Shown piece after piece: positions 1 to 13,459 of a DNA stretch of 13,459 nt (the stretch's first letter is position 1; every line of letters begins with the position of its first letter). The stretch is taken from positions 1 through 13,459 of the IMG/VR virus record IMGVR_UViG_3300045988_088938. One strand, 5' to 3'. Below the pieces are notes generated by a model. That model searched no databases, was not told the origin of the DNA, and worked only from the letters and a program-made list of their open reading frames with translations. The stretch comes from a virus. A program made the translations under genes and the position numbers.

Positions 1-55
1 AAGTGCTATTGGGACTATCTGCGAGCGCGAGTTTGTGAAGGAAGTGTGAAACATG
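1..55. repeat. Left inverted terminal repeat (55 bp)
   Basis: aagtgctattgggactatctgcgagcgcgagtttgtgaaggaagtgtgaaacatg equals the reverse complement of 13405-13459. Identity stops at nt 56 (c versus a). The repeat contains an SD-like gaaggaag followed by ATG at 53-55. Confidence 0.95.
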
Positions 56-109
56 CTCAATCTGCTTTGGGTTTTGGGTGCTGTGTTTGATATTTTAAGA
101 GGGTGAACG

Positions 110-256
110 ATGATGATTTTTGTGATTGATATGCTTAATCATGTACAGGTATATGCGGGCGCAAGTATGTTGGAAGCAATGACCGCGCAAAATGATTATA
201 TGTGCTTTATGGGCATTTCTGACGAGTCAATCCAAATGGAGGTGATTTACAAATGA
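110..256 (+). CDS. Hypothetical small acidic Met-rich protein (48 aa), absent from the supplied ORF track
   Basis: ATG at 110 lies 3 nt after the SD GAGGGTGA (100-106). Translation: MMIFVIDMLNHVQVYAGASMLEAMTAQNDYMCFMGISDESIQMEVIYK. Its TGA stop (254-256) overlaps the ATG of the next ORF (253) as ATGA, suggesting translational coupling. No homology recognised. Confidence 0.4.
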   Translation: MMIFVIDMLNHVQVYAGASMLEAMTAQNDYMCFMGISDESIQMEVIYK

Positions 257-441
257 CAATCTGTGATTTTTACCGGGCGTGTCTGTCAATGCAGCCTAAA
301 ACAAGTATCCGCGTGTATGACAAGGAACGCTGCATCTATACCGGTGAATATGGCAACCTGCCTTATACACTTGCAAAACATGAGTTTGCTACCCTGCTAG
401 TCAACCCTAACATGGAATGGAAATTTTATTTTAACTCTTGA
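253..441 (+). CDS. Hypothetical small protein (62 aa), paralogue of the right-terminal 82-aa ORF
   Basis: SD GGAGGTGA (239-246) lies 6 nt before the ATG. The protein shares DFYR-C...P...VY...TGE(Y/F)...(L/M)P with ORF 13159-13407 (-). Confidence 0.6.
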   Translation: MTICDFYRACLSMQPKTSIRVYDKERCIYTGEYGNLPYTLAKHEFATLLVNPNMEWKFYFNS

Positions 442-466
442 CACCAACAATTACATATGATACCAT
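438..466 (+). promoter_or_regulatory. Candidate sigma-A/sigma-70 type promoter: TTGACA-N17-TACCAT with TG extension
   Basis: TTGACA at 438-443 overlaps the TGA stop of the 62-aa ORF. A 17-nt spacer ends in ...TGA, followed by TACCAT at 461-466. It lies in the only sizeable non-coding gap of the + arm, upstream of the morphogenesis operon. Confidence 0.45.
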
Positions 467-467
467 T

Positions 468-550
468 AGAGCGGGAAAAGATGCGCAAGCTATACGGACG
501 GAATCCGGCGCACGACCTTGTAGCGGGTCAAGAGTCTTTTCCCGCTTTTT
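468..550 (+). ncRNA. Candidate structured small RNA or leader (three-way junction closed by a 12-bp 5'/3' helix, ending in a U-tract)
   Basis: Helix A: 470-481 agcgggaaaaga pairs perfectly with 535-546 tcttttcccgct, followed by tttt (547-550). Helix B: 482-486/508-512 and 495-498/504-507, with an 8-nt bulge at 487-494. Helix C: 514-517/526-529, with loop 518-525. No SD-led ORF is present here. Confidence 0.35.
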
Positions 551-584
551 GTATTCCCGTCCGCTCGAAAGTGAGGTGTAAACC

Positions 585-737
585 ATGGAAGAAATTAGCA
601 ATCTTATCCAACAGGTTGGCTTCCCAATTGCGGCGTTTTTGCTTATGTGGTGGCAAAGCAACACTACTATCAAGGACAACACCGCAGCAATTAACAAGCT
701 GTACGACCACTTGAGCGATAAAGACGGTGATGCATAA
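585..737 (+). CDS. YvrJ-like small membrane protein (50 aa), a possible holin-type protein; absent from the supplied ORF track
   Basis: SD GAGGTG (573-578) lies 6 nt before ATG 585. Translation: MEEISNLIQQVGFPIAAFLLMWWQSNTTIKDNTAAINKLYDHLSDKDGDA. The GFPI-plus-hydrophobic core followed by a polar helix matches my memory of the Firmicute YvrJ family. Its stop TAA overlaps the next ATG (TAATG). Confidence 0.55.
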   Translation: MEEISNLIQQVGFPIAAFLLMWWQSNTTIKDNTAAINKLYDHLSDKDGDA

Positions 738-946
738 TGTATGTTGTTATGTATGCCGACATTACCAGCGCTCAGGCGTGGATTGTATACAGCAAGTGTA
801 AACATTTGGGTATTGGCTATTATAGCGAATACACCCACAATTACAATCAAAACGCCGCATGTGGCCCCATGACAGCAGGCGACAAAGACGCGCTTGTCAA
901 ACTTGTCAATGACCCAGCCAAAACAACCGTATTGAAAGAGGTGTAA
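737..946 (+). CDS. Hypothetical protein (69 aa)
   Basis: The ATG overlaps the preceding stop. A weak SD GGTGA (726-730) lies 6 nt upstream. It fits the operon packing, with the next gene's SD immediately after its stop. No homology recognised. Confidence 0.45.
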   Translation: MYVVMYADITSAQAWIVYSKCKHLGIGYYSEYTHNYNQNAACGPMTAGDKDALVKLVNDPAKTTVLKEV

Positions 947-951
947 TACAC

Positions 952-1278
952 ATGACTATTGATGATATTATTGCTCTGTGCCGTGCAGGTTACACGAAAG
1001 ACGACCTTGCAAAACTTGTCACTCTTGACAACGCTACACCCGCTACACCCGCTGCACCCGCTGCCCCCGCCGCACCCGCTGCACCCGCTGCACCCGCTGC
1101 ACCCGCTGCACCTGCTGCACCTGTAGAGGATGCGGGCGGTATTATTGCCGCGATTAACGCACTGGGCGCGCAGATTAAAACGATGAATATCGCGGCAACC
1201 GAACAGCCTAAACCGCAGACCGCGGAAGATGTGCTTGCAAGCATTATTATGCCGCCAAAGGCAGGTGAACGAGTGTGA
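952..1278 (+). CDS. Putative scaffolding-like protein with (Pro-Ala-Ala)n linker (108 aa)
   Basis: SD AGAGGTG precedes ATG 952. It is a small protein with an N-terminal helical TIDDIIALCRAGYTKDDLAKLV motif, a PAA repeat and an Ala-rich C-terminal half. It lies just upstream of the head genes, as gene 7 does in phi29. The call is by position and composition only. Confidence 0.4.
   Translation: MTIDDIIALCRAGYTKDDLAKLVTLDNATPATPAAPAAPAAPAAPAAPAAPAAPAAPVEDAGGIIAAINALGAQIKTMNIAATEQPKPQTAEDVLASIIMPPKAGERV
1036..1125 (+). repeat. Tandem 9-bp repeat, about 10 copies (consensus gcacccgct), in frame and encoding (T/A)PA repeats
   Basis: Units read directly: acacccgct x2, gcacccgct, gcccccgcc, gcacccgct x4, gcacctgct, gcacctgta. 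The repeat is codon-aligned with the ORF starting at 952. Confidence 0.95.
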
Positions 1279-1583
1279 GACAATTTTACAGCGAGCTAAT
1301 AGGGGGTAGTACCGGAACAACTGTGCAATTTGTAAAGCCCGTGAGAAAAATTCTTGTAGAGTGCGACACACTAATCGGTTTGGCGATACCGTTTTCTGAT
1401 GGCAGTTTTTCTGACGAGTTTTTATGCTTCCCGAAACAGCCCGTATATCTGGATTTTCAAAGCGCCAATAATGGCGGCGGAGTAAGCTCTATTAGCTTAA
1501 TACCGGAAGTTGGTGGTGGTGGCGTTGCGAGATTATCCGTCATCGAATATGGCTCCGATGGTGATAATGATTGGTACAAATAA
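1275..1583 (+). CDS. Hypothetical Gly-rich head-module protein (102 aa)
   Basis: GTG start overlaps the upstream stop (GTGA). SD AGGTGA (1263-1268) lies 6 nt upstream. It sits between the scaffold-like and capsid genes. No homology recognised. Confidence 0.45.
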   Translation: MRQFYSELIGGSTGTTVQFVKPVRKILVECDTLIGLAIPFSDGSFSDEFLCFPKQPVYLDFQSANNGGGVSSISLIPEVGGGGVARLSVIEYGSDGDNDWYK

Positions 1584-1598
1584 TGTGAGGTGACACAA

Positions 1599-2813
1599 AT
1601 GAATGATATGACTATTTCGCAGGCCGCAACAATCCTTGGCTCCGCGGTCGAACAGGCAACAGGCCAGAAAGTAATTACTAATATCGACACGCCGGAGCAG
1701 TTTGTTTCGGTTGCCCAGACCGCTCTTAAAACGGGTTATGACCCGATTATTAACGCACTGTCGCAGATTTGGAGTCGGTCAATCTACGCAGTGCGTGACT
1801 ACACAAGCCCCCTGACCAGTCTTGAAATGGATTTGCCCCGTTACGGCAACGCGCTGCGCAAGATTAGTCCCATTGCCGCAAAGATGCAGGACGACCAGCG
1901 TTTTATCTGGCCCGTTGCCTATGATGCAACTAATCATAAGGCAAACGCTCTGGGTAATGGCGAAAGTGTTGACATGTACAAGATTAGCAAGCAGGAAGTC
2001 TTGCAGACCAACTTTTACGGCACCGCAGTCTACCAGCAGCGCTACACTACGTTTAAGGACCAGTTTGACGTTGCTATGTCCTCTGCCGATGAATTTATGC
2101 GTTTTAACGCCATGAATATGACGGAGCGCAATAACGACAAAGAATCCTACCGCGAAGCAGTTGCCCGCGGCATGCAGGCGAATTTTATTGCAGCAATCCT
2201 TGACGAGGGTCAGAATTCCCGCGTTGTACATCTGTTGACCGAGTATAATGCTGAAACTGGTTTGAGCCTGTCGGCGCAGAGCGTTTACCAGCCTGACAAT
2301 TTCGCGCCCTTTATGCGCTGGGTGTATGCCCGTTTGAACGTGATTGCGCGTTTTATGGGTGAGCGCAGTCAGCTTTATCAGACCGTTATTAACGAAAAGC
2401 CAGTCTTGCGCCACACCCGCGGCAGCGACCTGCGCGTGGCTCTGTACAGCAAAGCATATGAGCAGATGCGCACCATGGCGCTGTCCACTACATTCCACGA
2501 TGATTACCTCAAATTGGCAAAATTTGAGGGCATCAATTTCTGGCAGAGCATTGAGACACCGGACAGCGTGAGCATCACGCCGGTATACACCAGCACCACC
2601 GGTGCAGTCAAAAAGGCATCCAAGGCCGTGGAGCAGGCCGGTATTTTCGGCATCATGCACGACCGTGACGCGCTGGGCTATTGCTACACCAACATGTGGA
2701 GCGCGACCACCCCGCTCAACATTGACGGTGGCTATTGGAACACCGCGGAGCATGCAACCATCAAGACTATCCAGGACAACACCGAAAAGGCCGTTGTGCT
2801 GCTGCTTGATTAA
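1599..2813 (+). CDS. Major capsid protein (404 aa from ATG 1599)
   Basis: SD GAGGTGA (1587-1593) lies 5 nt before ATG 1599, so the track's GTG at 1590 falls inside the SD. It is the largest head-module ORF and is followed by a strong terminator. Its N-terminal region resembles the phi29 gp8 layout as I recall it. The call rests mainly on position and size. Confidence 0.75.
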   Translation: MNDMTISQAATILGSAVEQATGQKVITNIDTPEQFVSVAQTALKTGYDPIINALSQIWSRSIYAVRDYTSPLTSLEMDLPRYGNALRKISPIAAKMQDDQRFIWPVAYDATNHKANALGNGESVDMYKISKQEVLQTNFYGTAVYQQRYTTFKDQFDVAMSSADEFMRFNAMNMTERNNDKESYREAVARGMQANFIAAILDEGQNSRVVHLLTEYNAETGLSLSAQSVYQPDNFAPFMRWVYARLNVIARFMGERSQLYQTVINEKPVLRHTRGSDLRVALYSKAYEQMRTMALSTTFHDDYLKLAKFEGINFWQSIETPDSVSITPVYTSTTGAVKKASKAVEQAGIFGIMHDRDALGYCYTNMWSATTPLNIDGGYWNTAEHATIKTIQDNTEKAVVLLLD

Positions 2814-2826
2814 CTCTTAATAATAG

Positions 2827-2856
2827 CCCCGTGTCAGTTATGGCACGGGGTATTTT
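2827..2856 (+). terminator. Rho-independent terminator after the capsid gene
   Basis: A 10-bp stem pairs 2827-2836 ccccgtgtca with 2841-2850 tggcacgggg (one G-U pair), with a gtta loop, followed by tatttt. Confidence 0.8.
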
Positions 2857-2873
2857 GAAAGAGGTGAAAGAGC

Positions 2874-4346
2874 GTGAATATTACGCTATATCAATTTGCC
2901 AAAAAATTGAACAGCACTGCCCGCCCTTCTGGCACGTCAAAAGGCGTGCAAGGTCAATTGCGGGAATCTTGCAGCATGTTAGCGCCGGAAATTGGTTTTG
3001 TAGCATTCGGGCAGTCTGAAAGCCCTCACGCGTGGAACTATGCATATATTCCAGATTTTGGCAGATTTTATTTTATCGACAACTGGACTTGGACGGCGGG
3101 CATGTGGTATGCAAGCATGTCTGTTGATGTGCTTGCAACGTGGCGCACAAATATTGCGGATAGCGTAGAATATGTAACACGTTCGGCTAGTGCTTATGAT
3201 GGTAATATTGTTGATTCCTTGTATCCAACAAATGTGCAAGTTTCGCGCGAAGTTACAACCGCAAATAATCCATTCGCGCCTAACAGAGCATGGGACAATG
3301 GCGATTATTGTATAGCCATTAGCTCAAAAGGCGGTTACGGAAGCGGTTTTCTGAAATATTGGCGGCTTGACCGCCAGAACATGCAGATTCTTGCGAACAA
3401 GCTTTTAGGCTCTGTTGACTACCTTAATTTGCAGGCGGAAGAAATATCAGACAGTCTTGCAAAAGCGCTTTTTAATCCGACACAATATGTTTCCAGTCTG
3501 TTATATTTTCCGTTTGCGCTGAATTATAGCACAGATAGCGAAACCACCCCATTACCGTTTGGCTGGTGGGAAATGGAAGGTGTACAAGCTTATCCGCTGC
3601 TGGGGGAGTATGCAAAAAAAGACGTGTACACAGAGCTGCAAATTCCGAAACATCCACAAGCGGCTGACCTGGGAAATTGGATTAATTTGGAGCCTTACAG
3701 TAGATACAATATCAATGTACCACCCTTTGGCGATATACCGCTAGACAGCACCAAAATTGTTAATGTATCACGTCTATATTTACATTATCAGATTGACCAG
3801 TATACCGGTTTTGCGATTTTGCGTATATGCACAGATCCTGAACATAATCACGTTATCCGCACTAGTACTGCACAGATTGGCATCCCATTAACTATTACGC
3901 AGATTTCGATGGCGCCCACAACACCGGGAAGCAATGCCGTAAATACGGGTATTGCCGTGGGCGGGGCTTTTATGAGGGGCTTATTTAGCGATGTGAAAAA
4001 TTGGCTTAACCCTGATAAGTCAATGGGTGATGTTATCGGCACGACTGCAAGCAATATTGTAAGTGGCGTGGGTGATGCGCTGCAAAGTGCCAACGCGGAA
4101 GTAGAAACACGCGGCGCACAGGGGTGTATGACGTGGCGGCAGAATCCCCCACAACTATATGCAACATTTATGCCGCTAGTTGAAACTGACAAAGAGCGGC
4201 GAGGGAGACCGCTCTGTAAATCTGTTAAAATCGGCAACTTATACGGTTATGTGCAGGTTTACAATCCAGATTTTAACGCGCCCGCAACCAGTACGGAAAT
4301 TGGCGCTGTTAATAATTTTATGTCAGATGGGTTTTTTTATGAGTGA
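2874..4346 (+). CDS. Tail knob / distal tail tube protein (phi29 gp9-like, 490 aa)
   Basis: SD GAGGTGA (2861-2867) lies 6 nt before GTG 2874. FYFIDNWTWTAGMWYASMSVDVLATW parallels phi29 gp9 WFYAFVTELEF...HFEIDVLQTW. The C-terminal GYVQVYNPDF...TEIGAVNNFMSDGFFYE parallels gp9 NYVQTKDCFISG...LQEIRTIFDNGITLW. Both phi29 sequences are from memory. Confidence 0.75.
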   Translation: MNITLYQFAKKLNSTARPSGTSKGVQGQLRESCSMLAPEIGFVAFGQSESPHAWNYAYIPDFGRFYFIDNWTWTAGMWYASMSVDVLATWRTNIADSVEYVTRSASAYDGNIVDSLYPTNVQVSREVTTANNPFAPNRAWDNGDYCIAISSKGGYGSGFLKYWRLDRQNMQILANKLLGSVDYLNLQAEEISDSLAKALFNPTQYVSSLLYFPFALNYSTDSETTPLPFGWWEMEGVQAYPLLGEYAKKDVYTELQIPKHPQAADLGNWINLEPYSRYNINVPPFGDIPLDSTKIVNVSRLYLHYQIDQYTGFAILRICTDPEHNHVIRTSTAQIGIPLTITQISMAPTTPGSNAVNTGIAVGGAFMRGLFSDVKNWLNPDKSMGDVIGTTASNIVSGVGDALQSANAEVETRGAQGCMTWRQNPPQLYATFMPLVETDKERRGRPLCKSVKIGNLYGYVQVYNPDFNAPATSTEIGAVNNFMSDGFFYE

Positions 4347-4357
4347 GGTGAAATTAT

Positions 4358-4909
4358 ATGGCAAGCTATCCACAATGTATCACGGATGAGAGCACAATCA
4401 CAGTAACCGCAGCATACCCTTATTATTCGGACGGGTCGCACCATGGCGGCATTGACACCAAGCATCCCACTGATTTTTTGTCGTTTGCGCCGCAGGCTGG
4501 CACGATTGTAACGGCGCACACTTGGCAAGGCGGCAAAACAGGTAACGACAGTTGGGGCAATTATATCGTGGTAGATATGGGCAACAAACGTTATTGGTTG
4601 GCTGCGCATTTTAAAACGCAGACACACAAAGTGGGCGATGTGCTCAAAGCTGGCGATTTGATTGGCATGCAGGGGCAGACCGGCAATGCAACCGGCATCC
4701 ACACCCATTGGGAGTATTGGGTAGGTGGGCGCTCTACTCGTTACCGTCAAGACCCGTCCCAAATTTTGGGCATCCCGAACGCAGTTGGCAAGTATGATGT
4801 AACATGGAGTGCAGACAACCCGCCCGGCCCCGGCCCGGAGCCGCCCACGCCGGGTAAAAAAGCAATACCGGTATGGCTATTGCTTAAAATGGCAAGGAGG
4901 TATGCCTGA
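4358..4909 (+). CDS. M23 (LytM/lysostaphin-type) metallopeptidase, a peptidoglycan hydrolase (183 aa)
   Basis: SD GAGGTGA precedes ATG 4358. It has the HxxxD motif (HGGID) and the HxH motif (IHTHWE), with the intervening GNYIVV...GDLIGMQGQTGNATG typical of M23. A Pro-rich linker PPGPGPEPPTPG is followed by the C-terminal KKAIPVWLLLKMARRYA. Confidence 0.85.
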   Translation: MASYPQCITDESTITVTAAYPYYSDGSHHGGIDTKHPTDFLSFAPQAGTIVTAHTWQGGKTGNDSWGNYIVVDMGNKRYWLAAHFKTQTHKVGDVLKAGDLIGMQGQTGNATGIHTHWEYWVGGRSTRYRQDPSQILGIPNAVGKYDVTWSADNPPGPGPEPPTPGKKAIPVWLLLKMARRYA

Positions 4910-6424: not shown

Positions 6425-6436
6425 GGAGGTTATAGC

Positions 6437-8884
6437 ATGTTTGACACTAGATGGCCTTATACCAATTTCCACGAGCTCAATCTTGATTGGATTTTGGAGA
6501 CGCTCAAAAAGCAGGATGCAGCTATTGCGGATTTTATCTCGCTCAATAGCATTACCTATGCAAACCCGCTGCAATGGGATATTACGCGGCAGTACCCTAA
6601 AAATCAGGTTGTGCTTGATACCAACGGAGACGGCTATTTGAGCGTGCAGCCGGTGCCGGTCGGCGTGGAAATCGACAACACCGACTACTGGACAAAGATT
6701 GGCAATTTTTCCGAGCTGTGGAGCACGGTCAAATTGGCAATCACGGCAGCAGATGAGGGACTCAAAACCACGGCAAGCGCAGACCGGGCAAGCGGCGACC
6801 TTGTATGGCTCAATAATACCCTATATGTATGCACCACCGCAATTACACGCGGCACCGAGTACGGCACCAACAACACGGCAAAAACCACGATTGATGCAAG
6901 ACTTGCCAATTTGGCGCAGGCAGTTAAAACGCTGCAAGACAACATTGCAAATGTTAATACCGCGTTAGGTAACAAGATTGACAAGAGCACCACCGGAGAC
7001 CTTATGCAGACGGTCGGCGGCAAGTATAACATGGTAGCAGATGATTTTTCCGTTAAGTCTACCAGAGGCTACCGCAATGCAATCCATGTACCTAACGACC
7101 CCAATACACCTATTGATATTGGCAGTGATGGCGGCACATACCTGCAAGGCAATGTTAAAAGTAACTTAGTAATCAGCCATTACAATGATAATTTTGATTG
7201 GTGGCCTTTGACTGATTACAACGGCAAGACACGCAAAGTTGCTATTATCCGTGAGGATGCCGATTTTACCACAATTCCCGGCTCTCCAGTTGACATTCGC
7301 ACTTTTCAGGCCCTTAAAATGAATGGAACGGACGACATTACCGCAACCCTGAACACCTATACCAAACAATTTCCGCTGTTTATCCCGGTCGGCATCTACA
7401 AAATCAGCGCACCAGTGCAGCTTAAACATAGCTTGTATGGTGCAAGCGCGTCTCGTGACCCGGCACGCGGCAGCAGTGACACAATTTTGCAGTATACTGG
7501 CAATCCGACAGCGTTTGACAGCCTTGGCGTGTTGACTGTATCCGGCAATGATGTAGACGGCAATGTCGTCATTGCAAATTTGGATATTATTTGCAACGGC
7601 ATGATTGGCGGTATTGTGTATACCACGGATGTATACACCGACAATTACATCTATAATGTAAGTATCAGCGGCGTTAAATCCTATGGCGTGTACTTGCAGC
7701 CAAGCACTAGCACGTTAAGCCGGTATTGCTACATGGATAATGTAACGGTGTGGGGCTTTAGTGACGTACACCCCGCGGAGCGTGCTACCGGTAACGTTGC
7801 ATTTTATTGGGGCGATAAGTCCCCGGATTGCTGCTGCAATAACCTGCTTGCAATGGTTTGTCAAACCGGGTTTGATTGCCGTACTAACGTGTTTGGATGC
7901 AACTGGATTACCTATAATGGCATCCCATCCGGCGGCAGCGGCGGCGCTGATGCAAATACATGGTGGGAGAGCACGTGTGGGCTAAAAGTCACAAACAATG
8001 ATGTGCACGTTAACAACCTGTATCTTGATACTTGCCGCCATGGTATTATTTTTGACGGGCCGGGCAAGGCCGCGGCATATATCACTAACTTAATTTATAC
8101 GGTCAATGACGACACGGCAACCACCGGAGAGGGCAACGCAGCACTTGCACTGATTGGCACGAGTCCTAGTCCGCAGTTGACGGTTGACGGCGGCGTGATT
8201 AACCGTGGCGCCAAAGTATCCACCATGGTGCAGACTATTGGGCACTACCCCATCACTGCCATGAATTGCAAAATCAACAATGCGTATATCTACACCAAGC
8301 GAGAGTATATTTTTAGTGCCGACAACCAGTATTTTTGCAAGGCCGGAGAGCACCGCTGCATTGACCTTGCAATCACAGACCAGACACAATACACCGTTTC
8401 GGGGCAATCGGAGACCGGAGACCCAGAGCAGTACAAAGCATTTGCCTATATTCCGGTGCCGTCTGGCAGCGAAACATCGCAAGGTTGTATTCATATCTGC
8501 GACCGTAACAACATTGATTATACTGTCTTTATTTCCAACAATCCCGAATCCGGCGGATTGTTTGCAATCAGCGCATTTGACAACCGCAAGCTCAATCAAG
8601 CCATTTATGGTGCAACTGCCGGAGCGGGAAGGACAGTTACTTGGGATGTAGTTACAAACCTTGACAAGTTGTATTATGTCAATGATGGTAATGCTATCAT
8701 CCTTTATTTTAAGCGCCCTGCATCTTATGCGGTTACTGTGCAGGTGACTGGCTTCCTTCCAGGCAATTCCCCTGTGATTCTCGACCGCATCCGCAACATG
8801 GACGGCACGCCAATGGATTTCCCGCGATGGAATAATCATGACGGCATGACTGCTATCAAGGTTTTGCGCCCTAACATTTCTTAA
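6437..8884 (+). CDS. Tailspike / pre-neck appendage-like receptor-binding protein with right-handed beta-helix domain (815 aa)
   Basis: SD AAGGAGG precedes ATG 6437. The N-terminal WPYTNFHELNLDWILETLKK motif is common in Gram-positive phage fibre proteins. A coiled segment (RLANLAQAVKTLQDNIANVNTALGNKI) follows. NGTDDITATLNTY...PLFIPVGIYKISAPVQL matches the hallmark entry of the pectate-lyase-3 type beta-helix. The gene sits at the phi29 gene 12 position. Confidence 0.75.
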   Translation: MFDTRWPYTNFHELNLDWILETLKKQDAAIADFISLNSITYANPLQWDITRQYPKNQVVLDTNGDGYLSVQPVPVGVEIDNTDYWTKIGNFSELWSTVKLAITAADEGLKTTASADRASGDLVWLNNTLYVCTTAITRGTEYGTNNTAKTTIDARLANLAQAVKTLQDNIANVNTALGNKIDKSTTGDLMQTVGGKYNMVADDFSVKSTRGYRNAIHVPNDPNTPIDIGSDGGTYLQGNVKSNLVISHYNDNFDWWPLTDYNGKTRKVAIIREDADFTTIPGSPVDIRTFQALKMNGTDDITATLNTYTKQFPLFIPVGIYKISAPVQLKHSLYGASASRDPARGSSDTILQYTGNPTAFDSLGVLTVSGNDVDGNVVIANLDIICNGMIGGIVYTTDVYTDNYIYNVSISGVKSYGVYLQPSTSTLSRYCYMDNVTVWGFSDVHPAERATGNVAFYWGDKSPDCCCNNLLAMVCQTGFDCRTNVFGCNWITYNGIPSGGSGGADANTWWESTCGLKVTNNDVHVNNLYLDTCRHGIIFDGPGKAAAYITNLIYTVNDDTATTGEGNAALALIGTSPSPQLTVDGGVINRGAKVSTMVQTIGHYPITAMNCKINNAYIYTKREYIFSADNQYFCKAGEHRCIDLAITDQTQYTVSGQSETGDPEQYKAFAYIPVPSGSETSQGCIHICDRNNIDYTVFISNNPESGGLFAISAFDNRKLNQAIYGATAGAGRTVTWDVVTNLDKLYYVNDGNAIILYFKRPASYAVTVQVTGFLPGNSPVILDRIRNMDGTPMDFPRWNNHDGMTAIKVLRPNIS

Positions 8885-8888
8885 CAGC

Positions 8889-8925
8889 AACAGCCCCTGC
8901 CAATACGGCAGGGGCTGTTTTATGC
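8889..8925. terminator. Bidirectional rho-independent terminator between the convergent arms
   Basis: A perfect 13-bp stem pairs 8889-8901 aacagcccctgcc with 8907-8919 ggcaggggctgtt, with loop aatac. The T-run on the + side abuts the ATPase stop codon (8920-8922). Confidence 0.8.
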
Positions 8926-9984
8926 TTTCCGGCTTGAGATTTTGGCACCTTCCCGGAAATACTTATCTAGTAATACTTCGCAAATTGGCGATTCAAATAA
9001 AACAATATCGGTATAATAGTACGCAAGGCGAAACCATGCAAAATGAGCGTTAAACATTTGTATGCCGCGTTCTGTGCTTTCATATACCGGGCAGTTTCCA
9101 GATTTGTGGGTTGTTACATAATATTTTTCTTTCGATTTATGCTTATATATTTCGAGTTCGCCCATAATACATATGGGTTTATACTCAATAATGTTTTGGG
9201 GCTTAATCTGGCTGTATTCCTGCCTAAAATCGTTATTGAGCGCCATAGCACTGTATAACTTATCTTTAGTAAGCCGGTACAATGCGGTATTGGCTTTTTG
9301 CACCGAGATTGGAGAGTGTTGCAGCATCACAAGAGTAATACCGCGCTCTGTGTCTTGCCACATTTCCGTTTTAGTATCAATCATTTTTTGAGCACGCGAA
9401 ACAAGCCCCATATCCAAAAACAGCGGGTTTGCAATATCGTTTGCATTGGCAAGACACAGCATTTTAAGGGGCGGTTCGCCTTTTAACTCTCTGTTACGGT
9501 TGATTGTTTCATATGCGTTATAAAATGCCGCAGCTTCGTTTTTAAGCGGACGTTCGTGCTTCTCGGGAATAAATTCATCATAGATACAAATTTTGCAATC
9601 CTCTGCGCTAAAACCGCGCATGTTGGAGATTGTAGAAAGTGCGCAGGTATAACCATACGGCAGGCCGCCGGTGTATTTGCCTTCTTCATCGACATCATAA
9701 AATGCGCTACTACCCTTGGATATCGGAAAAGGTTTGATGTTCAAACCCATATCTTCACAGACCGGCTTGATGGGGCTGAACTCTGGTTTATTAACTAGGT
9801 CGATGGCGGTTTGCGTTCGGCGCATGAGCATAAATGTTATACGATGCTCAAGTACATATTTTAATGCGCCATATGTTTTACCGGTGCCGCGTCCGCCTAC
9901 AATCATAATATAAGGCGTTGGCAAGCCCATAATATAATCCATGTTCAGGTATCCGCTGTCTAGGTATAACTTGTTCTTCTTCAT
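8920..9984 (-). CDS. DNA encapsidation (packaging) ATPase, phi29 gp16-like (354 aa)
   Basis: Walker A is GGRGTGKT and Walker B is ICIYDEF. IVGGRGTGKTY...FMLMRR parallels gp16 VIGARGIGKSY...FIYVRR. YDEFIPEK...INRNRE...LCLANA..ANPLF parallels FDEFIREK...VFRNRE...ICLSNA..VNPYF. Confidence 0.9.
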   Translation of the reverse strand: MKKNKLYLDSGYLNMDYIMGLPTPYIMIVGGRGTGKTYGALKYVLEHRITFMLMRRTQTAIDLVNKPEFSPIKPVCEDMGLNIKPFPISKGSSAFYDVDEEGKYTGGLPYGYTCALSTISNMRGFSAEDCKICIYDEFIPEKHERPLKNEAAAFYNAYETINRNRELKGEPPLKMLCLANANDIANPLFLDMGLVSRAQKMIDTKTEMWQDTERGITLVMLQHSPISVQKANTALYRLTKDKLYSAMALNNDFRQEYSQIKPQNIIEYKPICIMGELEIYKHKSKEKYYVTTHKSGNCPVYESTERGIQMFNAHFAWFRLAYYYTDIVLFESPICEVLLDKYFREGAKISSRKA

Positions 9985-10004
9985 TGTTACTCGCTTTCAT
10001 ATTT

Positions 10005-10044
10005 CAAAAGGGCGGCGGTTTTCAAGCCGCCGCCCTTTTGTTGG
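10005..10044 (-). terminator. Strong GC-rich hairpin terminator (symmetric, U-tracts both ways) between the SSB and ATPase genes
   Basis: The core stem pairs 10010-10018 gggcggcgg with 10027-10035 ccgccgccc. It is extendable to 14 bp (10005-10018/10027-10040). The loop is 8 nt. tttt flanks the stem in either orientation. Confidence 0.75.
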
Positions 10045-10070
10045 GGGGAATTATGTCAAGAATGGAATGG

Positions 10071-10421
10071 TTAGTTCATCTTGCATCCGATGTAATGACG
10101 GCCATTTTTGCTTTCGCCGCCAATGACTTCGATGTCTACAGTGGTGAGGTCAGCATCGTACTGGTTGACAACATCAACGATTGCTGCAAAGTCGCGCTTA
10201 AACGTGCCGGAAATGGTGCTGAAAGTGTCGCCCTCACTGGTAAGCACTGCAAGCACTTCCTGCGTTTCGCCCTTGGCGTTTTCATCCTCGTAGAGGGCGT
10301 AAGCCTCAATGTTAAAAGTTGCGCCTTCAAGCGTTTTCATGGAGCGTGAGTCGGGGTTGCGGGTCAGGCTGTACGCCTGCTTCATGGTCAGATTTTCGGG
10401 AAAGCTCTTGATGATTTTCAT
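10071..10421 (-). CDS. Single-stranded DNA-binding protein, phi29 p5-like (116 aa)
   Basis: SD AAGGAG lies 8 nt before the ATG. TLEGATFNIEAYALYEDENAKGETQEVLAVLTSEGDTFSTISGTFKRDFAAIVDVV...IEVIGGESKNGRHY parallels phi29 p5 TLEGQ...IEANAIAQYK...[37 protein letters not shown]...VKVVQGTSSKGNVF (from memory). It lies adjacent to the polymerase. Confidence 0.55.
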   Translation of the reverse strand: MKIIKSFPENLTMKQAYSLTRNPDSRSMKTLEGATFNIEAYALYEDENAKGETQEVLAVLTSEGDTFSTISGTFKRDFAAIVDVVNQYDADLTTVDIEVIGGESKNGRHYIGCKMN

Positions 10422-10473
10422 AATTGTTACTCCTTGTTCGTGTTTGTGTTTTGTAGCTTCTTGCTACAATTAT

Positions 10474-10502
10474 ATGATACCGCTTTATTAACCTATTGTC
10501 AA
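10474..10502 (-). promoter_or_regulatory. Candidate sigma-A type promoter TTGACA-N17-TATCAT upstream of the SSB gene
   Basis: On the - strand, TTGACA (10502-10497) overlaps the polymerase stop codon. A 17-nt spacer precedes TATCAT (10479-10474). A perfect TATAAT lies 5 nt further (10474-10469). A 7-bp palindromic hairpin at 10451-10469 follows. Confidence 0.45.
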
Positions 10503-12595
10503 TACCCATTTTCAAAATATTCATCCAGCCTGCCTATGCCTTTTCGGGTGTAATCGCAGCGCAAAAGCAAGTCCATATATTCCGCAGTAATTCCGAGTTT
10601 ATAGGTGCTTTCACGGATAACAACATTTGATGTAATTGGCAATGTGTGACCGTCTATTGTAATGCTGTCTATCTCTGGACTATCATTATATATGGATTCT
10701 GTGCCGCCCGCGTCACGGAAAACAAAACCCGGCTTAAATGCATCAATGCCGCCGCTGCGTTCCAATTCTTTCGCGCCCTCTTTTTTATTAACGCCTGCAA
10801 TTGTGCAGCACAATGGGCTTTCTGGCGTTTCGCGGTAGCAATATTTTTTAGCGCCCAACGTGGCAAATTCGAACATATCATGTTCAGGTTCGAAAACGCC
10901 CATATAATGCATGTTGCCGGATGGGTCAGCAGCATATGCACCTGAGGTTTTACTATCTTTAATTCTTGCTTTGTTGTATTTTGTCCAGTCAATGTCACCG
11001 AGATATTTTACCGAGTCAGTATCACAATACACAAAGCCATCCCCTGCAAGCTCTATACCCTCTTCAAGTCGATAACGCGCATTTGCAGTTACCCAAACGC
11101 CCCATTGATAACACAAAAACGCGTTGCGCAGATTTTGCGACAAGATATTTTCGATTGGCGTTTTTTCATCAATTTCAAATTCTTCTTCAGGAGTGTATAA
11201 TATGGAGCGTTTGCCCGGGTCTTGTGCCATCATGCCATATATACTATTGAGCTTGTTTTTGCTTTTCATGTAATACAATTCTTGCCCGGGCACATTCTTC
11301 AAGCTTGTTTTTGCGCGGTAATAATCTATTGCACATTCAATCAGTTCGCGCGGCAACTTTGCGTAGGTGGATTGCCAACAGTCAAATGCCCGGAATCCAG
11401 AAAACTTGTACTCTTTAAGGATAATTGCAAGGTCAACATCTGTCACGGTTGTTTCGAGGTATTTTGCGCTCAATATTCGCCCGTTGTCACGGTCGGGGTC
11501 TATCACGTTTCGGCTCTTATCAATCGTAAGATATGGGCATCCCCAGCAAGGGTTGATTAACTCAACGTCTGTTAATGCAATACGCATTATCAACGCTTTG
11601 CGGTGCTTGTTGAGTTTTCGTTTGAGTCCATCCAAAGTTATTTCCCCGATAGGCACAAAAGCTCGCATTGGGTACAGACAATTGCACAACACATCCGGGT
11701 AACTGCTGCTTCGGTCTGCGCTCTGGATTTTACCACGCAGCACTTGACCGGTATAATAGCGGTTGGCGTGAGTGTTTCCGCCGCGAAACGCTTCACGCAG
11801 CATTGTATATAATTCCGCGTCAGGCTGGATTGCGCCGAGACGTTCCAGCCCTGCGCGTTTCATGGCGGCGCGTGCATCGCGGCGCACATAGCCGGTAGAG
11901 GTTAGAGGAATTGTGTACAGGTTGTCATTGTCATGGTGCATTTCAATGGTCAGGGCTTCACATAGGCCGAGCACGTCATTTACACAATATTCAAGCTCTT
12001 CATCCGACAACGCCGTCCATGGATAGCGGAGCTTATTGTAGTCAAATTTTACGCCGGACAATTTACCATGAGCCACGCCCATTTTGTGGGTGTATGCATC
12101 AAGGCTCATATTCGAGTGCAGATAGCTGCAGCGGAATTCAAAAAAATTATCATACATCGTACATTTCAGGACTTTGCGGCAATCAACTGCAAAAATCTCA
12201 TCATTAGTAAAATGGTAGATACCGCGTAAAAATTGGAACTCATATGACAAATTATGGACATATACACAGAGCTGCAAATGGTAATCTTCTTGAGATTGTT
12301 CTTGCATGCAGGCTTCGAGGCTGGCACACAATGCTTCAAATTCATCCCATGTTCTACCGACAACAGTAAGATTAATAGGTGCCGCAAAATGCCATTGCCA
12401 AATATACATGACAGCTTGTTCTATCGACTTAATGCGAGTTGTTTCAATGTCAAACGCTGTCACAATATCAAGCAATTTTGTCTTTTTGGTTCTTGTGATT
12501 TTCCGTTCCAAAACAGGTAGCGTGGCGAATTTCTCTAGCGGAAAATCAATCACCGAACAAATGACTTGCCCATTCTTCAAGGTCTTTACTTTCAA
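10499..12595 (-). CDS. Family B DNA polymerase, protein-primed type (698 aa)
   Basis: Exo I is FDIETT, Exo II is HNLSYEFQF and Exo III is YCVNDVLGL. Motif A is DRSSSYPD, motif B is KNKLNSIYGMMAQ, motif C is YCDTDSV and the KxY motif is GAKKYCY. All parallel phi29 DNAP motifs. The start is TTG at 12595, preceded by AAGGTGA. Confidence 0.95.
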   Translation of the reverse strand: MKVKTLKNGQVICSVIDFPLEKFATLPVLERKITRTKKTKLLDIVTAFDIETTRIKSIEQAVMYIWQWHFAAPINLTVVGRTWDEFEALCASLEACMQEQSQEDYHLQLCVYVHNLSYEFQFLRGIYHFTNDEIFAVDCRKVLKCTMYDNFFEFRCSYLHSNMSLDAYTHKMGVAHGKLSGVKFDYNKLRYPWTALSDEELEYCVNDVLGLCEALTIEMHHDNDNLYTIPLTSTGYVRRDARAAMKRAGLERLGAIQPDAELYTMLREAFRGGNTHANRYYTGQVLRGKIQSADRSSSYPDVLCNCLYPMRAFVPIGEITLDGLKRKLNKHRKALIMRIALTDVELINPCWGCPYLTIDKSRNVIDPDRDNGRILSAKYLETTVTDVDLAIILKEYKFSGFRAFDCWQSTYAKLPRELIECAIDYYRAKTSLKNVPGQELYYMKSKNKLNSIYGMMAQDPGKRSILYTPEEEFEIDEKTPIENILSQNLRNAFLCYQWGVWVTANARYRLEEGIELAGDGFVYCDTDSVKYLGDIDWTKYNKARIKDSKTSGAYAADPSGNMHYMGVFEPEHDMFEFATLGAKKYCYRETPESPLCCTIAGVNKKEGAKELERSGGIDAFKPGFVFRDAGGTESIYNDSPEIDSITIDGHTLPITSNVVIRESTYKLGITAEYMDLLLRCDYTRKGIGRLDEYFENGY

Positions 12596-13172
12596 TTTTC
12601 ACCTTGCCCCCTTTTGTACGGGAATATTCATCAGGAAAGTTGCGGGCAGCTTCTTCTTGCTTTTTGATAAATTTCTCAAACCATTTTTGCACTTTGGATA
12701 CTGGTATTTTGCCGGTCGTTACATTTTCAAAAAGATTTGCAATCGGTTCCGAATCAAAATGCATATTTTGCGCAATGGTTCGCATTGTTTCCATAAATGT
12801 GACATACGATAAAAAATTCTGTTTTGTTACAAATTCATAGCCATTGGCATTAAGCTTTGCAATCATACCTTTGCGTTCGCGCTTAAAACGTGCGATTGAA
12901 ATATCTTCGTTCAAAAAACGCTTTGCTTCTGCGAGAGCATATACAAGCTGCTGTTTGTTCTTGATTTGCGCAACGGGTGGTAACTTGCCATAGTGCTTGA
13001 CTTCGGATAGTTCCGCAAATTCAGATTTTTCAAGACGCTCTTGACGTTTACGCACAATAGAGCGGAGCTTACTATACTCTTTACGCAAATCTGCTTCGGT
13101 ATGCTTATTAAGATAATATGGAGTGTACTCCAAGTCTTGCCACGCGTACTGCGTGGGTTTACGCTTTGCCAT
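12546..13172 (-). CDS. Candidate terminal protein (208 aa from ATG 13172)
   Basis: It lies immediately upstream of, and overlaps, the polymerase gene, as phi29 gene 3 does with gene 2. SD AGGAG (13185-13181) lies 8 nt before the ATG. It has a basic N-terminus (MAKRKP), and KEYSKLRSIVRKRQERLEK resembles phi29 TP AEYARLVKNTKAKIARTKKKY (from memory). The C-terminal region is acidic with Ser/Thr/Tyr candidates. The genome has ITRs. Confidence 0.6.
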   Translation of the reverse strand: MAKRKPTQYAWQDLEYTPYYLNKHTEADLRKEYSKLRSIVRKRQERLEKSEFAELSEVKHYGKLPPVAQIKNKQQLVYALAEAKRFLNEDISIARFKRERKGMIAKLNANGYEFVTKQNFLSYVTFMETMRTIAQNMHFDSEPIANLFENVTTGKIPVSKVQKWFEKFIKKQEEAARNFPDEYSRTKGGKVKIESKDLEEWASHLFGD

Positions 13173-13407
13173 AATCAATGCTCCTATCTTGCAGGGCAAA
13201 AGTCAATTTTACGATTTTTGAATCTTTTGCAAAAATGTTCATGTCCTCGATAGTCGCGTTGCGATATGACAAGGGCATAGACCGGAATTCACCTGTCCAC
13301 AGGGGCAGATCACCTTTCGTTGCACTGTACACACTAACCATAATATCAGGGGGCAAGGTGTAGCACATGCGGTAAAAATCCAAAGGTGTGATAACGCGTT
13401 TTTTCAT
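13159..13407 (-). CDS. Hypothetical small protein (82 aa), right-terminal paralogue of ORF 253-441
   Basis: The ATG and the SD GAAGGAAG lie inside the ITR. The protein shares the DFYR.C/P/VY/TGE(F/Y)/P pattern with the 62-aa left ORF. Its 3' end overlaps the terminal protein gene start by 14 nt. Confidence 0.6.
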   Translation of the reverse strand: MKKRVITPLDFYRMCYTLPPDIMVSVYSATKGDLPLWTGEFRSMPLSYRNATIEDMNIFAKDSKIVKLTFALQDRSIDYGKA

Positions 13408-13459
13408 GTTTCACACTTCCTTCACAAACTCGCGCTCGCAGATAGTCCCAATAGCACTT
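13405..13459. repeat. Right inverted terminal repeat (55 bp)
   Basis: Exact reverse complement of nt 1-55, checked base by base. The ATG of the 82-aa terminal ORF (13405-13407, - strand) is the innermost triplet of the repeat. Confidence 0.95.

Follow-up and report, generated by a model that had tools for sequence, protein, structure and literature searches.

A phi29-like podovirus contig from the human gut and a small structured RNA proposed as its packaging RNA

Genome organization

The window (the whole 13,459-nucleotide stretch analysed here) is very probably a metagenome contig of high quality, cut short at both ends, that derives from a phi29-like podovirus of lytic type in the human gut; the linear genome would span about 14.25 kb and encode an RNA that we propose as its prohead RNA. 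The genome itself is ordinary, and its novelty lies in this small structured RNA, which is built like the packaging RNA (pRNA) of phi29. The window has a GC content of 46.5% and carries 17 complete ORFs, closely packed and arranged as two convergent blocks, where an earlier note had counted about 18 tightly packed genes; public gene calls on an ENA contig of the identical genome (ERZ917812 k127_65257, hereafter L159) list the same 17 genes and two partial end ORFs. The plus block is read as small early ORFs, a consensus promoter, the structured RNA, a small membrane protein and a scaffold candidate, followed by genes for a gp8-like capsid protein, gp9-like knob, M23 hydrolase, gp10 portal, gp11-like collar and appendage candidate. 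The minus block comprises the 82-aa ORF, a terminal-protein candidate, polymerase, single-stranded DNA-binding protein (SSB) and gp16-type ATPase, and the two transcription blocks meet at a bidirectional terminator. The features are as follows.

1-55, no strand: left inverted terminal repeat (ITR), innermost 55 bp; repeated without mismatch, in inverted form, at 13405-13459; contig cut where the repeat meets unique sequence
2-49, plus: ITR ORF, last 15 codons (SAIGTICEREFVKEV) and stop of a 53-aa ORF that runs off the contig
110-256, plus: 48-aa early ORF, also among the L159 gene calls; homologues confined to 5 loci
253-441, plus: 62-aa ORF, paralogue of the right-end 82-aa ORF (BLASTP)
438-466, plus: Sigma70-type promoter (TTGACA, 17 nt, TGaTACCAT), predicted to drive the RNA and the late operon
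471-549, plus: structured RNA, pRNA-like three-way junction (conservation, covariation, MFE -34.5 kcal/mol)
585-737, plus: 50-aa single-pass membrane protein, first late gene; hydrophobic core IQQVGFPIAAFLLMWW; homologues in 78 loci
737-946, plus: 69-aa ORF, also called on L159
952-1278, plus: 108-aa protein with a Pro-Ala repeat, scaffold candidate from its position upstream of the capsid gene; 89 loci
1275-1583, plus: 102-aa variable ORF; homologues in only 8 loci, DNA not alignable to relatives
1599-2813, plus: major capsid protein, 404 aa, gp8-like (hhalign 96.2%, E 2e-9, 306 columns)
2874-4346, plus: tail knob, 490 aa, gp9-like (Foldseek and hhalign)
4358-4909, plus: M23 peptidoglycan endopeptidase, 183 aa (PF01551, E 5e-13)
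4909-5820, plus: portal/upper collar connector, gp10-like (PF05352, E 7e-19; phrog_2038, E 3e-26)
5813-6424, plus: lower collar, 203 aa, gp11-like (hhalign against gp11 89.8%, E 2e-6)
6437-8884, plus: tail appendage or receptor-binding candidate, 815 aa, from its position after the collar gene
8889-8919, no strand: bidirectional intrinsic terminator between the convergent blocks (13-bp stem with 9 GC pairs, then a T-run)
8920-9984, minus: gp16-type DNA packaging ATPase (PF05894, E 2e-12; phrog_2150, E 4e-33)
10006-10040, minus: GC-rich hairpin and U-run between the SSB and ATPase genes, terminator- or attenuator-like; kept in relative L001
10071-10421, minus: phi29 p5-type SSB (PF17427, E 3e-6; hhalign against gp5 96%)
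10499-12595, minus: protein-primed family-B DNA polymerase, PolB (PF03175; phrog_1907, E 2e-56)
12546-13172, minus: terminal-protein candidate, 208 aa, overlapping the PolB gene start; from position and conservation
13159-13407, minus: 82-aa ORF, paralogue of the 62-aa ORF; its start ATG is the last ITR triplet
13405-13459, no strand: right ITR, innermost 55 bp, truncated likewise

Virion and packaging proteins

Profile or fold comparisons bore out the capsid, portal, lower collar, tail knob, M23 and gp16-like ATPase assignments made earlier from the sequence. In tblastn searches, the capsid protein matched annotated major head proteins of Phanie and astrithr. The knob was aligned to phi29 gp9 by hhalign at 45%, with controls below 1%, and the top four Foldseek matches were phi29 gp9 (5FB4, 5FB5; E 6e-8 to 1e-7, next match 0.02; query pLDDT 60.5). 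The C-terminal two thirds of the knob are hypervariable, and the protein is 43% identical to that of L001, where neighbouring genes are ~97% identical. The M23 hydrolase matches the M23 domain of phi29 gp13 (hhalign 95%) and does lie between the tail knob and portal genes, as had been pointed out; its gene occurs in only 17 family loci. A weak match to phrog_3225, adaptor Ad4, was also obtained for the lower collar. The ATPase is indeed encoded on the replication strand, and packaging would be driven by this gp16-type enzyme acting at the portal.

The scaffold and appendage candidates keep their assignments by position and conservation; the implied likeness to phi29 was not seen, with no detectable similarity to gp7 (hhalign 3%) or gp12 (hhalign 7%), respectively. 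The appendage candidate also had no match in Pfam, PHROG, NCBIfam or PDB. The 50-aa membrane protein is possibly a holin and shows no similarity to phi29 gp14.

Replication module and the nature of the element

Pfam and PHROGs classify the polymerase as DNA_pol_B_2, and the Exo, motif A, B and C (YxDTDS) and KxY residues are invariant across the PolB family alignment; the profiles, together with hhalign for the SSB, thus agree with the earlier identification of PolB and a p5-like SSB. The terminal-protein candidate is conserved in 90 loci, with a length of 208 aa in 88 of 88 close homologues and conserved Tyr and Ser residues. It remains a candidate by position and conservation, as proposed earlier, and no similarity to phi29 gp3 is detectable (hhalign 2%). 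We infer that replication would be primed by the candidate and run by the family-B polymerase with the p5-type SSB. Comparison with phi29 proteins detected no p4- or p6-like protein, in agreement with the earlier reading. The two paralogous small ORFs share 31% identity over 42 aa (BLASTP, E 1e-7); an HMM finds two copies per genome in 13 loci, and the exact 82-aa protein is present on at least 23 public contigs.

In line with the earlier reading, the genome is that of a linear, ITR-bearing, probably protein-primed podovirus of the phi29 type with an essentially full gene set; the host is probably a member of the Bacillota (Clostridia). Protein-primed PolB is also carried by linear plasmids, and PolB relatives occur in MAG bins of Clostridia and Christensenellaceae, which would fit a prophage or linear-plasmid fragment rather than a virulent phage genome. 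However, the binned contigs are whole, phage-sized pieces of 12-14 kb, which fits a binning effect, the window holds a full virion and packaging module, and Pfam, PHROGs and further searches found no integrase, repressor or partition gene in it. Relatives have defined ITR ends, and the nearest cultured relatives are phages. We therefore regard a prophage or plasmid origin as very improbable.

Genome ends

The length of the 55-bp repeat is an assembler artefact and no property of the phage. Positions 1-55 are the exact reverse complement of 13405-13459, the match ending past a shared ATG, so the perfect repeat reported earlier is present, but its length tracks the assembler k. The whole window lies inside L159 (13,603 bp) at 100% identity, at positions 73-13,531, and that contig continues for 72 bp more at each end, its terminal repeat of 127 bp equalling the k-mer of its k127 assembly. 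The terminal repeat of L161 (k141 assembly) is 141 bp; L157 (k119) extends 64 nt past the window end (55+64=119); and L006 and L012 have repeats of 77 and 55 bp. Repeat length thus equals k in five assemblies (55, 77, 119, 127 and 141). A de Bruijn assembler run at k=55 would cut a contig at the boundary of repeat and unique sequence, leaving exactly k ITR bases per end.

The earlier note took the window for a complete genome bounded by a genuine 55-bp ITR. The repeat is indeed perfect and breaks off at one and the same base on both sides; the opening AAGT is reminiscent of the phi29 AAAGTA. Against this stand the longer repeat of the identical genome at k=127, the agreement of repeat length with k, the ORF broken by both window ends and the internal location of window position 1 in relatives; completeness has next to no probability. 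Since the contig is cut at the repeat boundary, position 1 is not the genome terminus, and since the window ends are not genome ends, the genome is not complete.

The broken ORF has its mirror copy at 13411-13458 on the minus strand. It is complete, at 53 aa, in L001, L006, L149, L150 and L153, and is lengthened in L159 to VDTRKYRYYLTDTGHSLIIERIPASAIGTICEREFVKEV and stop. In some members of the MT835998.1/L002-L012 clade (see below), with an ITR of 294-300 bp, the right arm is without this ORF.

The true ITR is at least 127 bp, as seen in the identical genome. Perfect ITRs of 294 and 300 bp in L002 and L003 are regarded as genuine; GCGTA forms the first bases of these two and of L008, and the arms of relatives reach 364-396 nt outward of the window ends, left and right alike. 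The ITR is probably ~450 bp and the genome ~14.25 kb; this ITR length and the GCGTA start are extrapolated from ~85-91% identical genomes, since contigs of the exact strain stop short of the real terminus. The true genome would be linear, with long ITRs each carrying a promoter and the 53-aa ORF.

Structured RNA ahead of the late operon

The RNA at 471-549, previously unlisted, is structured, and its structure is conserved. Its 5' and 3' ends pair as P1; one arm of the junction consists of P2a, an 8-nt bulge loop and P2b, which is capped by the loop CGGAA, and the other arm, P3, is capped by the loop UGUAGC. A U5 tract (550-554) follows directly. About 85 nt of the region are almost unchanging among close relatives, whereas the flanking genes vary. 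No Rfam model matched the RNA, including that of pRNA (RF00044). An RNA model built without the window's clade, R3, matched the window RNA with 36.3 bits (E 1.2e-6) and, in a search of 80 loci (1 Mb), gave one match per genome in 50 of the 80 and none elsewhere. The matches lie ahead of late genes and, in collinear genomes, directly past the ATPase gene (spot-checked among the 50).

In the RNA alignment, 96% of cells are paired and 19 of 21 pairs vary on both sides, with a covariation score of 0.847 compared to 0.06-0.14 when partners were slid. Complementarity between the bulge loop and the P3 loop averages 4.17 nt within a molecule and 2.39 nt across molecules (30 distinct pairs), and the observed mean was reached in none of 2000 permutations. 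The promoter at 438-466 is conserved in an alignment of 10 relatives, and an equivalent one stands 4-7 nt ahead of the RNA in 44 of 51 family members. An ORF at 457-714 was rejected as spurious, the region being the conserved RNA gene.

We propose that this 79-nt RNA is the lineage's miniature prohead RNA, a packaging role that we infer by analogy with phi29. The A helix would have its counterpart in P1 and the C helix in P2a, with the bulge loop in place of the CE loop; the E helix and loop would be represented by P2b and its CGGAA loop, and the D helix and loop by P3 and its loop. In dot-bracket form, the MFE fold of phi29 pRNA shows this topology too, its 5' bulge loop being 9 nt long. The RNA shares with domain I of phi29 pRNA the terminal-end helix, the three-way junction and the element order; a first arm with a 7-9-nt bulge loop in its 5' strand and a 5-6-nt hairpin loop; and a second arm whose hairpin loop can form Watson-Crick pairs with the 3' part of the bulge loop, with covariation between the two. 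Both phages encode a gp16 ATPase and a gp10 portal. As CE/D loop pairing links pRNAs into a ring (PMC5066667), the covarying loop complementarity would join neighbouring RNAs in the same way.

In contrast to phi29 domain I (117-120 nt), the RNA here measures 62-85 nt and has shorter A and C helices; it is half the size of domain I, without domain II and with no CCA bulge seen, and carries a conserved CGGAA loop and AAGA junction instead of a U-rich junction. It stands at the 5' end of the late transcript, heading the late operon with ~79 nt, compared to 174 nt at the left end in phi29, in which R3 found no match. A basic N-terminal patch of phi29 gp10 binds pRNA; inspection of the portal N-terminus here showed no such patch.

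An alternative reading is that the RNA would act in cis as a pseudoknotted leader at the start of the late operon, where it could protect the 5' end from degradation, serve as the binding site of a regulator or govern read-through. The RNA begins at the predicted late-promoter start site in 44 of 51 members, and a U-run directly after P1 is found in only 5 of 51, so that in most lineages it is the 5' end of the late mRNA and no separate transcript. Where the ATPase and late modules are apart (the window's clade, L129 and L140), the RNA stays with the late operon. The similar lengths of P2a and P3 would also permit the loop-loop pairing inside a single molecule. In the window's clade, the GC-rich base of P1 followed by UUUUU could act as the terminator of a switch of the lambda 6S/Q type. 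However, a simple 5' hairpin would suffice for stabilisation, no antiterminator or RNA-binding protein was identified by Pfam, PHROGs and further searches, and the pRNA topology is matched point by point in a family that shares the protein partners of pRNA. We consider the leader a real but somewhat doubtful possibility and prefer the packaging RNA.

Comparison with known phages

The lineage is common. At least 578 relatives of 12-14.5 kb are present in IMG/VR, a size that is the norm for this very large gut clade, and exact proteins of this phage occur on dozens of contigs. The genome is thus neither unusually small, as had been claimed (cultured AD70P2 has 12.3 kb and astrithr 11.6 kb), nor a divergent lineage, its nearest GenBank record being already catalogued: MT835998 is listed among 2,115 phi29-like genomes (Evseev et al., 2024; PMC11476376).

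Phi29 (Salasmaviridae, Picovirinae) has homologous PolB, p5-type SSB, gp16 ATPase, gp8 capsid, gp9 knob, gp10 portal, gp11 collar and gp13 M23 domain, a linear genome with ITRs and the same late order of scaffold, capsid, knob, portal, collar and appendage. It differs in genome size (19.3 kb versus ~14.25 kb here) and ITR length (6 bp versus hundreds of bp), and the genome here is without p4, p6, head fibre or recognisable endolysin. Here the M23 enzyme (183 aa) has a gene of its own, located between those for knob and portal, and the ATPase follows the replication genes, whereas in phi29 it closes the late operon. The gene order called non-phi29 earlier therefore does differ from phi29, but in this family the ATPase gene normally comes after the polymerase gene.

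The 11.6-kb phages of Astrithrvirus (Salmonella phage astrithr and relatives) are likewise small protein-primed podoviruses, with a PolB 33% identical, a distantly homologous capsid and the terminase directly after the polymerase gene. They have Gram-negative hosts and an ITR of 18 bp in the record; R3 found no match there, and there is no intergenic room for an RNA after the terminase gene.

Among cultured phages, the nearest relatives are the Amedibacillus phages AD70P2 and AD70P3 (Guelinviridae in GenBank; 12.3 kb), which share the gene set (PolB 36%, capsid 29% and knob 24% identical) and terminase cluster 9 (Evseev et al., 2024; PMC11476376). All their genes lie on one strand, they have no M23 gene, and their GC content is 26.7% compared to 46.5% here. 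Their deposited ITR is exactly 55 bp and may likewise be an assembly artefact. A comparable three-way-junction RNA was recognised by eye between their ATPase and scaffold genes, where R3 gave no match.

The closest GenBank record, MT835998.1 ('Bacteriophage sp.', human faeces, Mexico), forms one clade with the window and IMG/VR L002-L012. These records are unannotated and UNVERIFIED, and other sequence replaces that of the window at the knob C-terminus, in the 102-aa ORF and in part of the appendage gene. Nucleotide identity is 89% across 83% of the window, the PolB and capsid sequences are 97% and 97.5% identical, and the convergent layout, the M23 gene and the RNA are shared.

Genome termini and inverted terminal repeats

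The window (13,459 bp, GC 46.5%) begins with 55 bases whose exact reverse complement forms its other end, the match stopping right after a common ATG. The perfect 55-bp inverted repeat described in the earlier note is present in the sequence, but the reading of the window as a complete genome bounded by a 55-bp inverted terminal repeat (ITR) is contradicted by longer contigs, which were found by looking up exact copies of its proteins. The decisive contig is L159 (ENA ERZ917812 k127_65257, from the human gut run ERR1190631), which at 13,603 bp holds the whole window at positions 73-13,531 with 100% identity, adds 72 bp on either end and carries a perfect 127-bp terminal repeat. The k141 contig L161 carries a 141-bp terminal repeat, and the k119 contig L157 runs 64 nt past the window end (55+64=119). 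In the clade relatives, the repeat of L012 is exactly 55 bp long and that of L006 is a perfect 77-bp repeat that stops at its right terminus. Because repeats of 55, 77, 119, 127, and 141 bp match k across assemblies, the terminal-repeat length is the assembler k, and the ITR of 55 bp is an artefact of assembly. A de Bruijn graph would cut the unique segment where a longer inverted repeat begins, leaving k bases of that repeat. Contigs running past both ends were what the earlier note had named as refuting its reading, and with L159 the identical sequence is public.

The ITR of the window genome is at least 127 bp long. The IMG/VR relatives with 97-98% identical portal proteins measure 13.7-14.5 kb, and window position 1 is internal to the relatives L002 (position 407), L001 (356), and L006 (365). 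To the right of the window end, L004 continues for 396 bp and L014 for 306 bp. An alignment of the relatives' arms revealed that both window ends cut through a conserved 53-aa ORF. The arms of window-type relatives (left, L006; right, L004, L014, and L149) point to an ITR of about 450 bp, which would therefore give a genome of ~14.25 kb. The ITR carries the complete 53-aa ORF and a promoter (…TGCTATACTATAAT). Perfect ITRs of 294 and 300 bp, which are not k-sized, were found in L002 and L003, and the termini of L002, L003, and L008 open with GCGTA(G/C)TA. The genome is linear with inverted terminal repeats, as in phi29-like podoviruses (at least 127 bp in L159, 294-300 bp in relatives).

The ITR boundary varies within the clade. 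Some genomes, such as L002 and L003, have ITRs of 294-300 bp and the 53-aa ORF on the left arm only, and the window-type genomes (window, L006, and L004 arms) have this ORF on both arms and an ITR of about 450 bp. The promoter unit is present twice on the right arm of L004. When metagenome contigs were searched, a 32-mer of the ITR gave no match and a 20-mer gave only chance matches to environmental contigs.

The deposited record of the cultured Amedibacillus phage AD70P2 (L015, OP172638.1), labelled "complete genome," likewise bears a perfect ITR, exactly 55 bp long, at positions 1-55 and 12266-12320. This repeat may reflect the same k=55 truncation, with the true ends being longer, and the record may thus be among the mis-ended genomes. 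Caution is due where a metagenome contig ends in an exact inverted repeat of 55, 77, 119, 127, or 141 bp, which is a k-mer artefact of a longer ITR; because of such k-mer-sized repeats, completeness calls and ITR lengths of protein-primed phages are systematically wrong.

Relatives, placement, and host

The window is a near-complete member of a common, already catalogued clade, which contradicts the earlier description of it as an unusually small phage of a divergent lineage. At least 578 PolB relatives are present in IMG/VR, and the 80 that were retrieved are mostly contigs of 12-14 kb. Homologues of the terminal-protein candidate form 89 clusters in public assemblies, and the exact 82-aa and portal proteins of the window occur on at least 23 and at least 18 contigs, respectively. 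Among GenBank records, MT835998, an unannotated entry from human faeces in Mexico, comes closest, with 89% identity across 83% of the window; it was assigned to MCP cluster 4 and terminase cluster 9 among 2,115 phi29-like genomes (Evseev et al., 2024, PMC11476376). Cultured relatives include Astrithrvirus (11.6 kb), Clostridium phage HM2, and the 12.3-kb Amedibacillus phages AD70P2/P3, whose PolB is 36% identical.

The relatives usually share a collinear layout of terminal protein, polymerase, SSB, ATPase, scaffold, capsid, knob, portal, collar, and fibre genes. The ATPase gene of the window is on the replication strand, as noted earlier, and adjoins the replication genes; since this order is collinear in most relatives, it is the family norm and not peculiar to the window. 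What sets the window clade apart from most relatives is the inversion of the replication/ATPase module and the M23 gene, found in just 17 of ~100 loci. The layout also differs from that of Salasmaviridae (phi29 proper), where gene 16 closes the late operon and p4 and p6 are present; the combination of phi29 gene order, p4/p6, and close protein similarity that defines this family was not found, and a PolB tblastn search of the phage collection yielded no Bacillus or Salasmaviridae among the organisms named. The sole link to Guelinviridae is AD70P2, whose PolB is 36% identical and which is filed there in GenBank, although the Amedibacillus phages form a cluster separate from that of the Clostridium Guelinviridae (Evseev et al., 2024, PMC11476376).

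In a single-protein query, PolB relatives at 45-60% identity were binned in Clostridia and Christensenellaceae MAGs, which provides weak evidence of the host. Whole phage-sized contigs (L142-L148, including L144, JAGHRS010000043.1) were observed in MAGs of Clostridia, Christensenellaceae, and even Candidatus Treponema caballi, probably as a binning artefact rather than through lysogeny. In a related phage (L041, MT836263.1), positions 12447-12510 on the minus strand matched the type II hammerhead ribozyme (RF02276) just below threshold, with 32.2 bits for a gathering score of 37 (E 0.013).

Gene layout and protein functions

The window contains 17 complete ORFs in two convergent blocks, and tRNA genes were not found in it.

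110-8884, plus strand, first gene block
8889-8919, strong bidirectional terminator between the two blocks
8920-13407, minus strand, second gene block

Pfam and PHROGs searches identified the protein-primed PolB (PF03175, E 2e-11; phrog_1907, E 2e-56; catalytic motifs invariant), the p5-type SSB, the M23 peptidase, the gp16-type packaging ATPase (PF05894), and the gp10-type portal (PF05352), the last two exceeding curated cut-offs. Family profiles built from ~90 related loci were compared with phi29 proteins by hhalign and matched capsid to gp8 (96%), SSB to gp5 (96%), M23 peptidase to gp13 (95%), a 203-aa protein to gp11 (90%), and the 490-aa knob protein to gp9 (45%; controls <1%). In a PDB search with a moderate-confidence AlphaFold model of the latter (pLDDT 60.5), phi29 gp9 was the sole significant match (Foldseek E 6e-8 to 1e-7; next match 0.02). 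The genome thus encodes the gp8-type capsid, gp9 knob, and gp11 collar proteins of phi29-like podoviruses. No matches came from PDB phmmer searches with the knob, appendage, collar, capsid, and terminal-protein candidates, and NCBIfam added nothing useful.

The candidate for the terminal protein, a 208-aa ORF that overlaps the polymerase gene at the start of the latter, is kept in 90 loci with nearly invariant Tyr and Ser residues; the homologues available are 79-95% identical, and no similarity to phi29 gp3 was detectable (hhalign 2%). The scaffold and appendage proteins are candidates assigned from position only. Profile or fold comparisons bear out the core modules proposed in the earlier note (PolB, p5 SSB, gp16 ATPase, MCP, portal, lower collar, knob, and M23 hydrolase). 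Its terminal protein, scaffold, and appendage have genes at fitting positions, but the last two stand by position only and the first lacks gp3 similarity. The absence of a p4- or p6-like regulator also held, as hhalign of the family profiles against phi29 detected none.

Several further features of the layout were observed. The ORFs at 253-441 (plus) and 13159-13407 (minus) are diverged paralogues (31% identity, E 1e-7) that sit just inside the two ITRs, both facing inward, and the ITR itself ends in a ribosome-binding site and ATG; on the right arm these open the 82-aa gene, but on the left only an ORF of 17 codons. The paralogue pair and the ITR-end ATG look like remnants of an older, longer terminal duplication. 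Compared with genomes otherwise 85-92% identical, no DNA similarity was found at window positions 1288-1560, 3173-4329 (C-terminal two thirds of the knob gene), and 7029-7304; the knob protein shares 43% identity with its counterpart in L001, whereas for neighbouring proteins the value is ~97%. These segments look like products of cassette exchange or diversifying selection, suggesting that the knob tip and appendage set host range. Two signals inside the minus-strand block suggest that SSB and ATPase expression is separately controlled:

10006-10040, minus strand, GC-rich hairpin and U-run between the SSB and ATPase genes
10474-10502, minus strand, sigma70-like promoter (11/12) just upstream of the SSB gene

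A conserved structured RNA

The genome itself adds little, its clade of small phi29-like gut phages being abundant and already catalogued; the unexpected value of the window lies in an RNA. In 10 close relatives, positions 438-556 (plus) are far better conserved than the flanking genes. An ORF called at 457-714 is spurious, the region being a conserved promoter and a three-way-junction RNA.

438-466, plus strand, consensus promoter
471-549, plus strand, structured RNA

The promoter is followed by ~85 near-invariant nucleotides with pairing 5' and 3' ends, UUUUU, and the ribosome-binding site of a 50-aa membrane protein. In distant relatives (PolB 30-59% identical), both the design and its location are retained, with wholly different helix sequences. 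The 5' and 3' ends form helix P1, which encloses P2a, a 7- to 8-nt bulge loop on the 5' strand, P2b with a CGGAA loop, P3, and an AAGA junction. A boxB/N-like reading of the CGGAA hairpin was rejected, as no protein with an arginine-rich motif was found.

A covariance model from close relatives alone was too narrow for distant members, and plain MAFFT alignment put P2a out of register. A hand-made, N-padded structural alignment was used instead; its 100% pairing is partly circular, the rows having been picked from folded structures. The resulting model gave 37 matches, from which the model R3 was built without any window-clade sequence. R3 found 50 matches in 80 loci (1 Mb), one per genome and none elsewhere, and in a spot-checked subset they fell at the expected site relative to the genes. 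Independent support for the fold comes from the R3 matches beyond the seed and from the genomic position that they share. The window element scored 36.3 bits (E 1.2e-6; next best match 12 bits). In the 50-match alignment, 96% of cells are paired, both sides change in 19 of 21 pairs, and covariation is seen in all four helices, with a score of 0.847 compared to 0.06-0.14 for slid controls. A sigma70-type promoter ends 4-7 nt ahead of P1 in 44 of 51 members. A U-run directly follows P1 in 5 of 51, and the U-tract was thus rejected as a general terminator.

An Rfam scan of the window and five relatives gave no match at the RNA locus, and an IMG/VR scan with a 17-mer of the RNA core found only chance matches beyond the known clade. 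The RNA is a new family without an Rfam entry. In L097, L098, L103-L112, and L117-L121, R3 had no match after the ATPase gene, yet structured RNAs fold at the same position, with another topology in L111/L121 (P3 nested within P2a). These predicted folds may represent variant classes of this RNA element.

A possible packaging RNA

The RNA and the folded phi29 packaging RNA (pRNA) have the same dot-bracket topology. In every lineage, the P3 loop can form Watson-Crick pairs with the 3' part of the bulge loop, the complementarity spanning 3-6 nt in 46 distinct sequences (for example, GGUCA/UGACC, GCACA/UGUGC, and AACC/GGUU); the window pair is GCUA/UAGC, or 6 bp if one G-U pair is allowed. Mean complementarity is 4.17 nt for loops of the same molecule and 2.39 nt for loops of different molecules, with 30 distinct covarying loop pairs, and the observed mean was reached by none of 2000 permutations. 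This corresponds to the CE loop/D loop complementarity of pRNA, pairing within and between molecules being alike compatible with the data. In phi29, CE/D pairing between molecules joins pRNAs in a ring (PMC5066667).

From these sequence comparisons and the phi29 analogy, we consider it an evenly balanced possibility that the 471-549 RNA and the family it belongs to, spread over hundreds of gut phages of 12-14 kb, are true prohead RNAs, miniature homologues of phi29 pRNA. Neighbouring RNAs would then ring the portal, the bulge loop of one pairing with the hairpin loop of the next, and the ring would dock the gp16-type ATPase. The equal length of the P2a and P3 arms also allows an intramolecular pseudoknot, which would fit the RNA being a cis-acting pseudoknotted leader of the late operon instead. 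We hold this alternative possible, though not probable: most members lack a terminator of their own and, where modules separate, the RNA keeps with the late operon rather than with the ATPase gene, both of which count against a pRNA, whereas the topology and covarying loop pairing are those of phi29 pRNA domain I.

The RNA is covariation-supported, absent from Rfam, and compresses the architecture of pRNA domain I into ~70 nt. In the pRNA literature covered here, pRNA is described from phi29 and closely related Bacillus phages only. If the RNA is a packaging RNA, it would settle whether pRNA is a Bacillus-phage peculiarity or a general part of gp16-type motors, making it an ancestral, widespread component of the phi29-type packaging motor and providing dozens of natural minimal designs of self-assembling three-way-junction RNAs. 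If it is a late-operon leader, it would represent a new class of phage regulatory RNA.

Several comparisons with phi29 pRNA count against the packaging-RNA reading. The RNA is only half as large as domain I and lacks domain II. Neither the window nor five relatives matched the Rfam pRNA model (RF00044) with an E threshold of 1, and R3 had no match in phi29, AD70P2, or astrithr; known pRNAs share only ~12% sequence identity among themselves (PMC5066667). The likeness to domain I lies in the A helix, the three-way junction, the C helix, the CE bulge loop, and the E and D helices and loops, with P1, P2a, the bulge loop, P2b, and P3 as the proposed counterparts of A, C, the CE loop, E, and D. The partners of pRNA, the gp16 ATPase and the gp10 portal, are both present in the phage family of the window.
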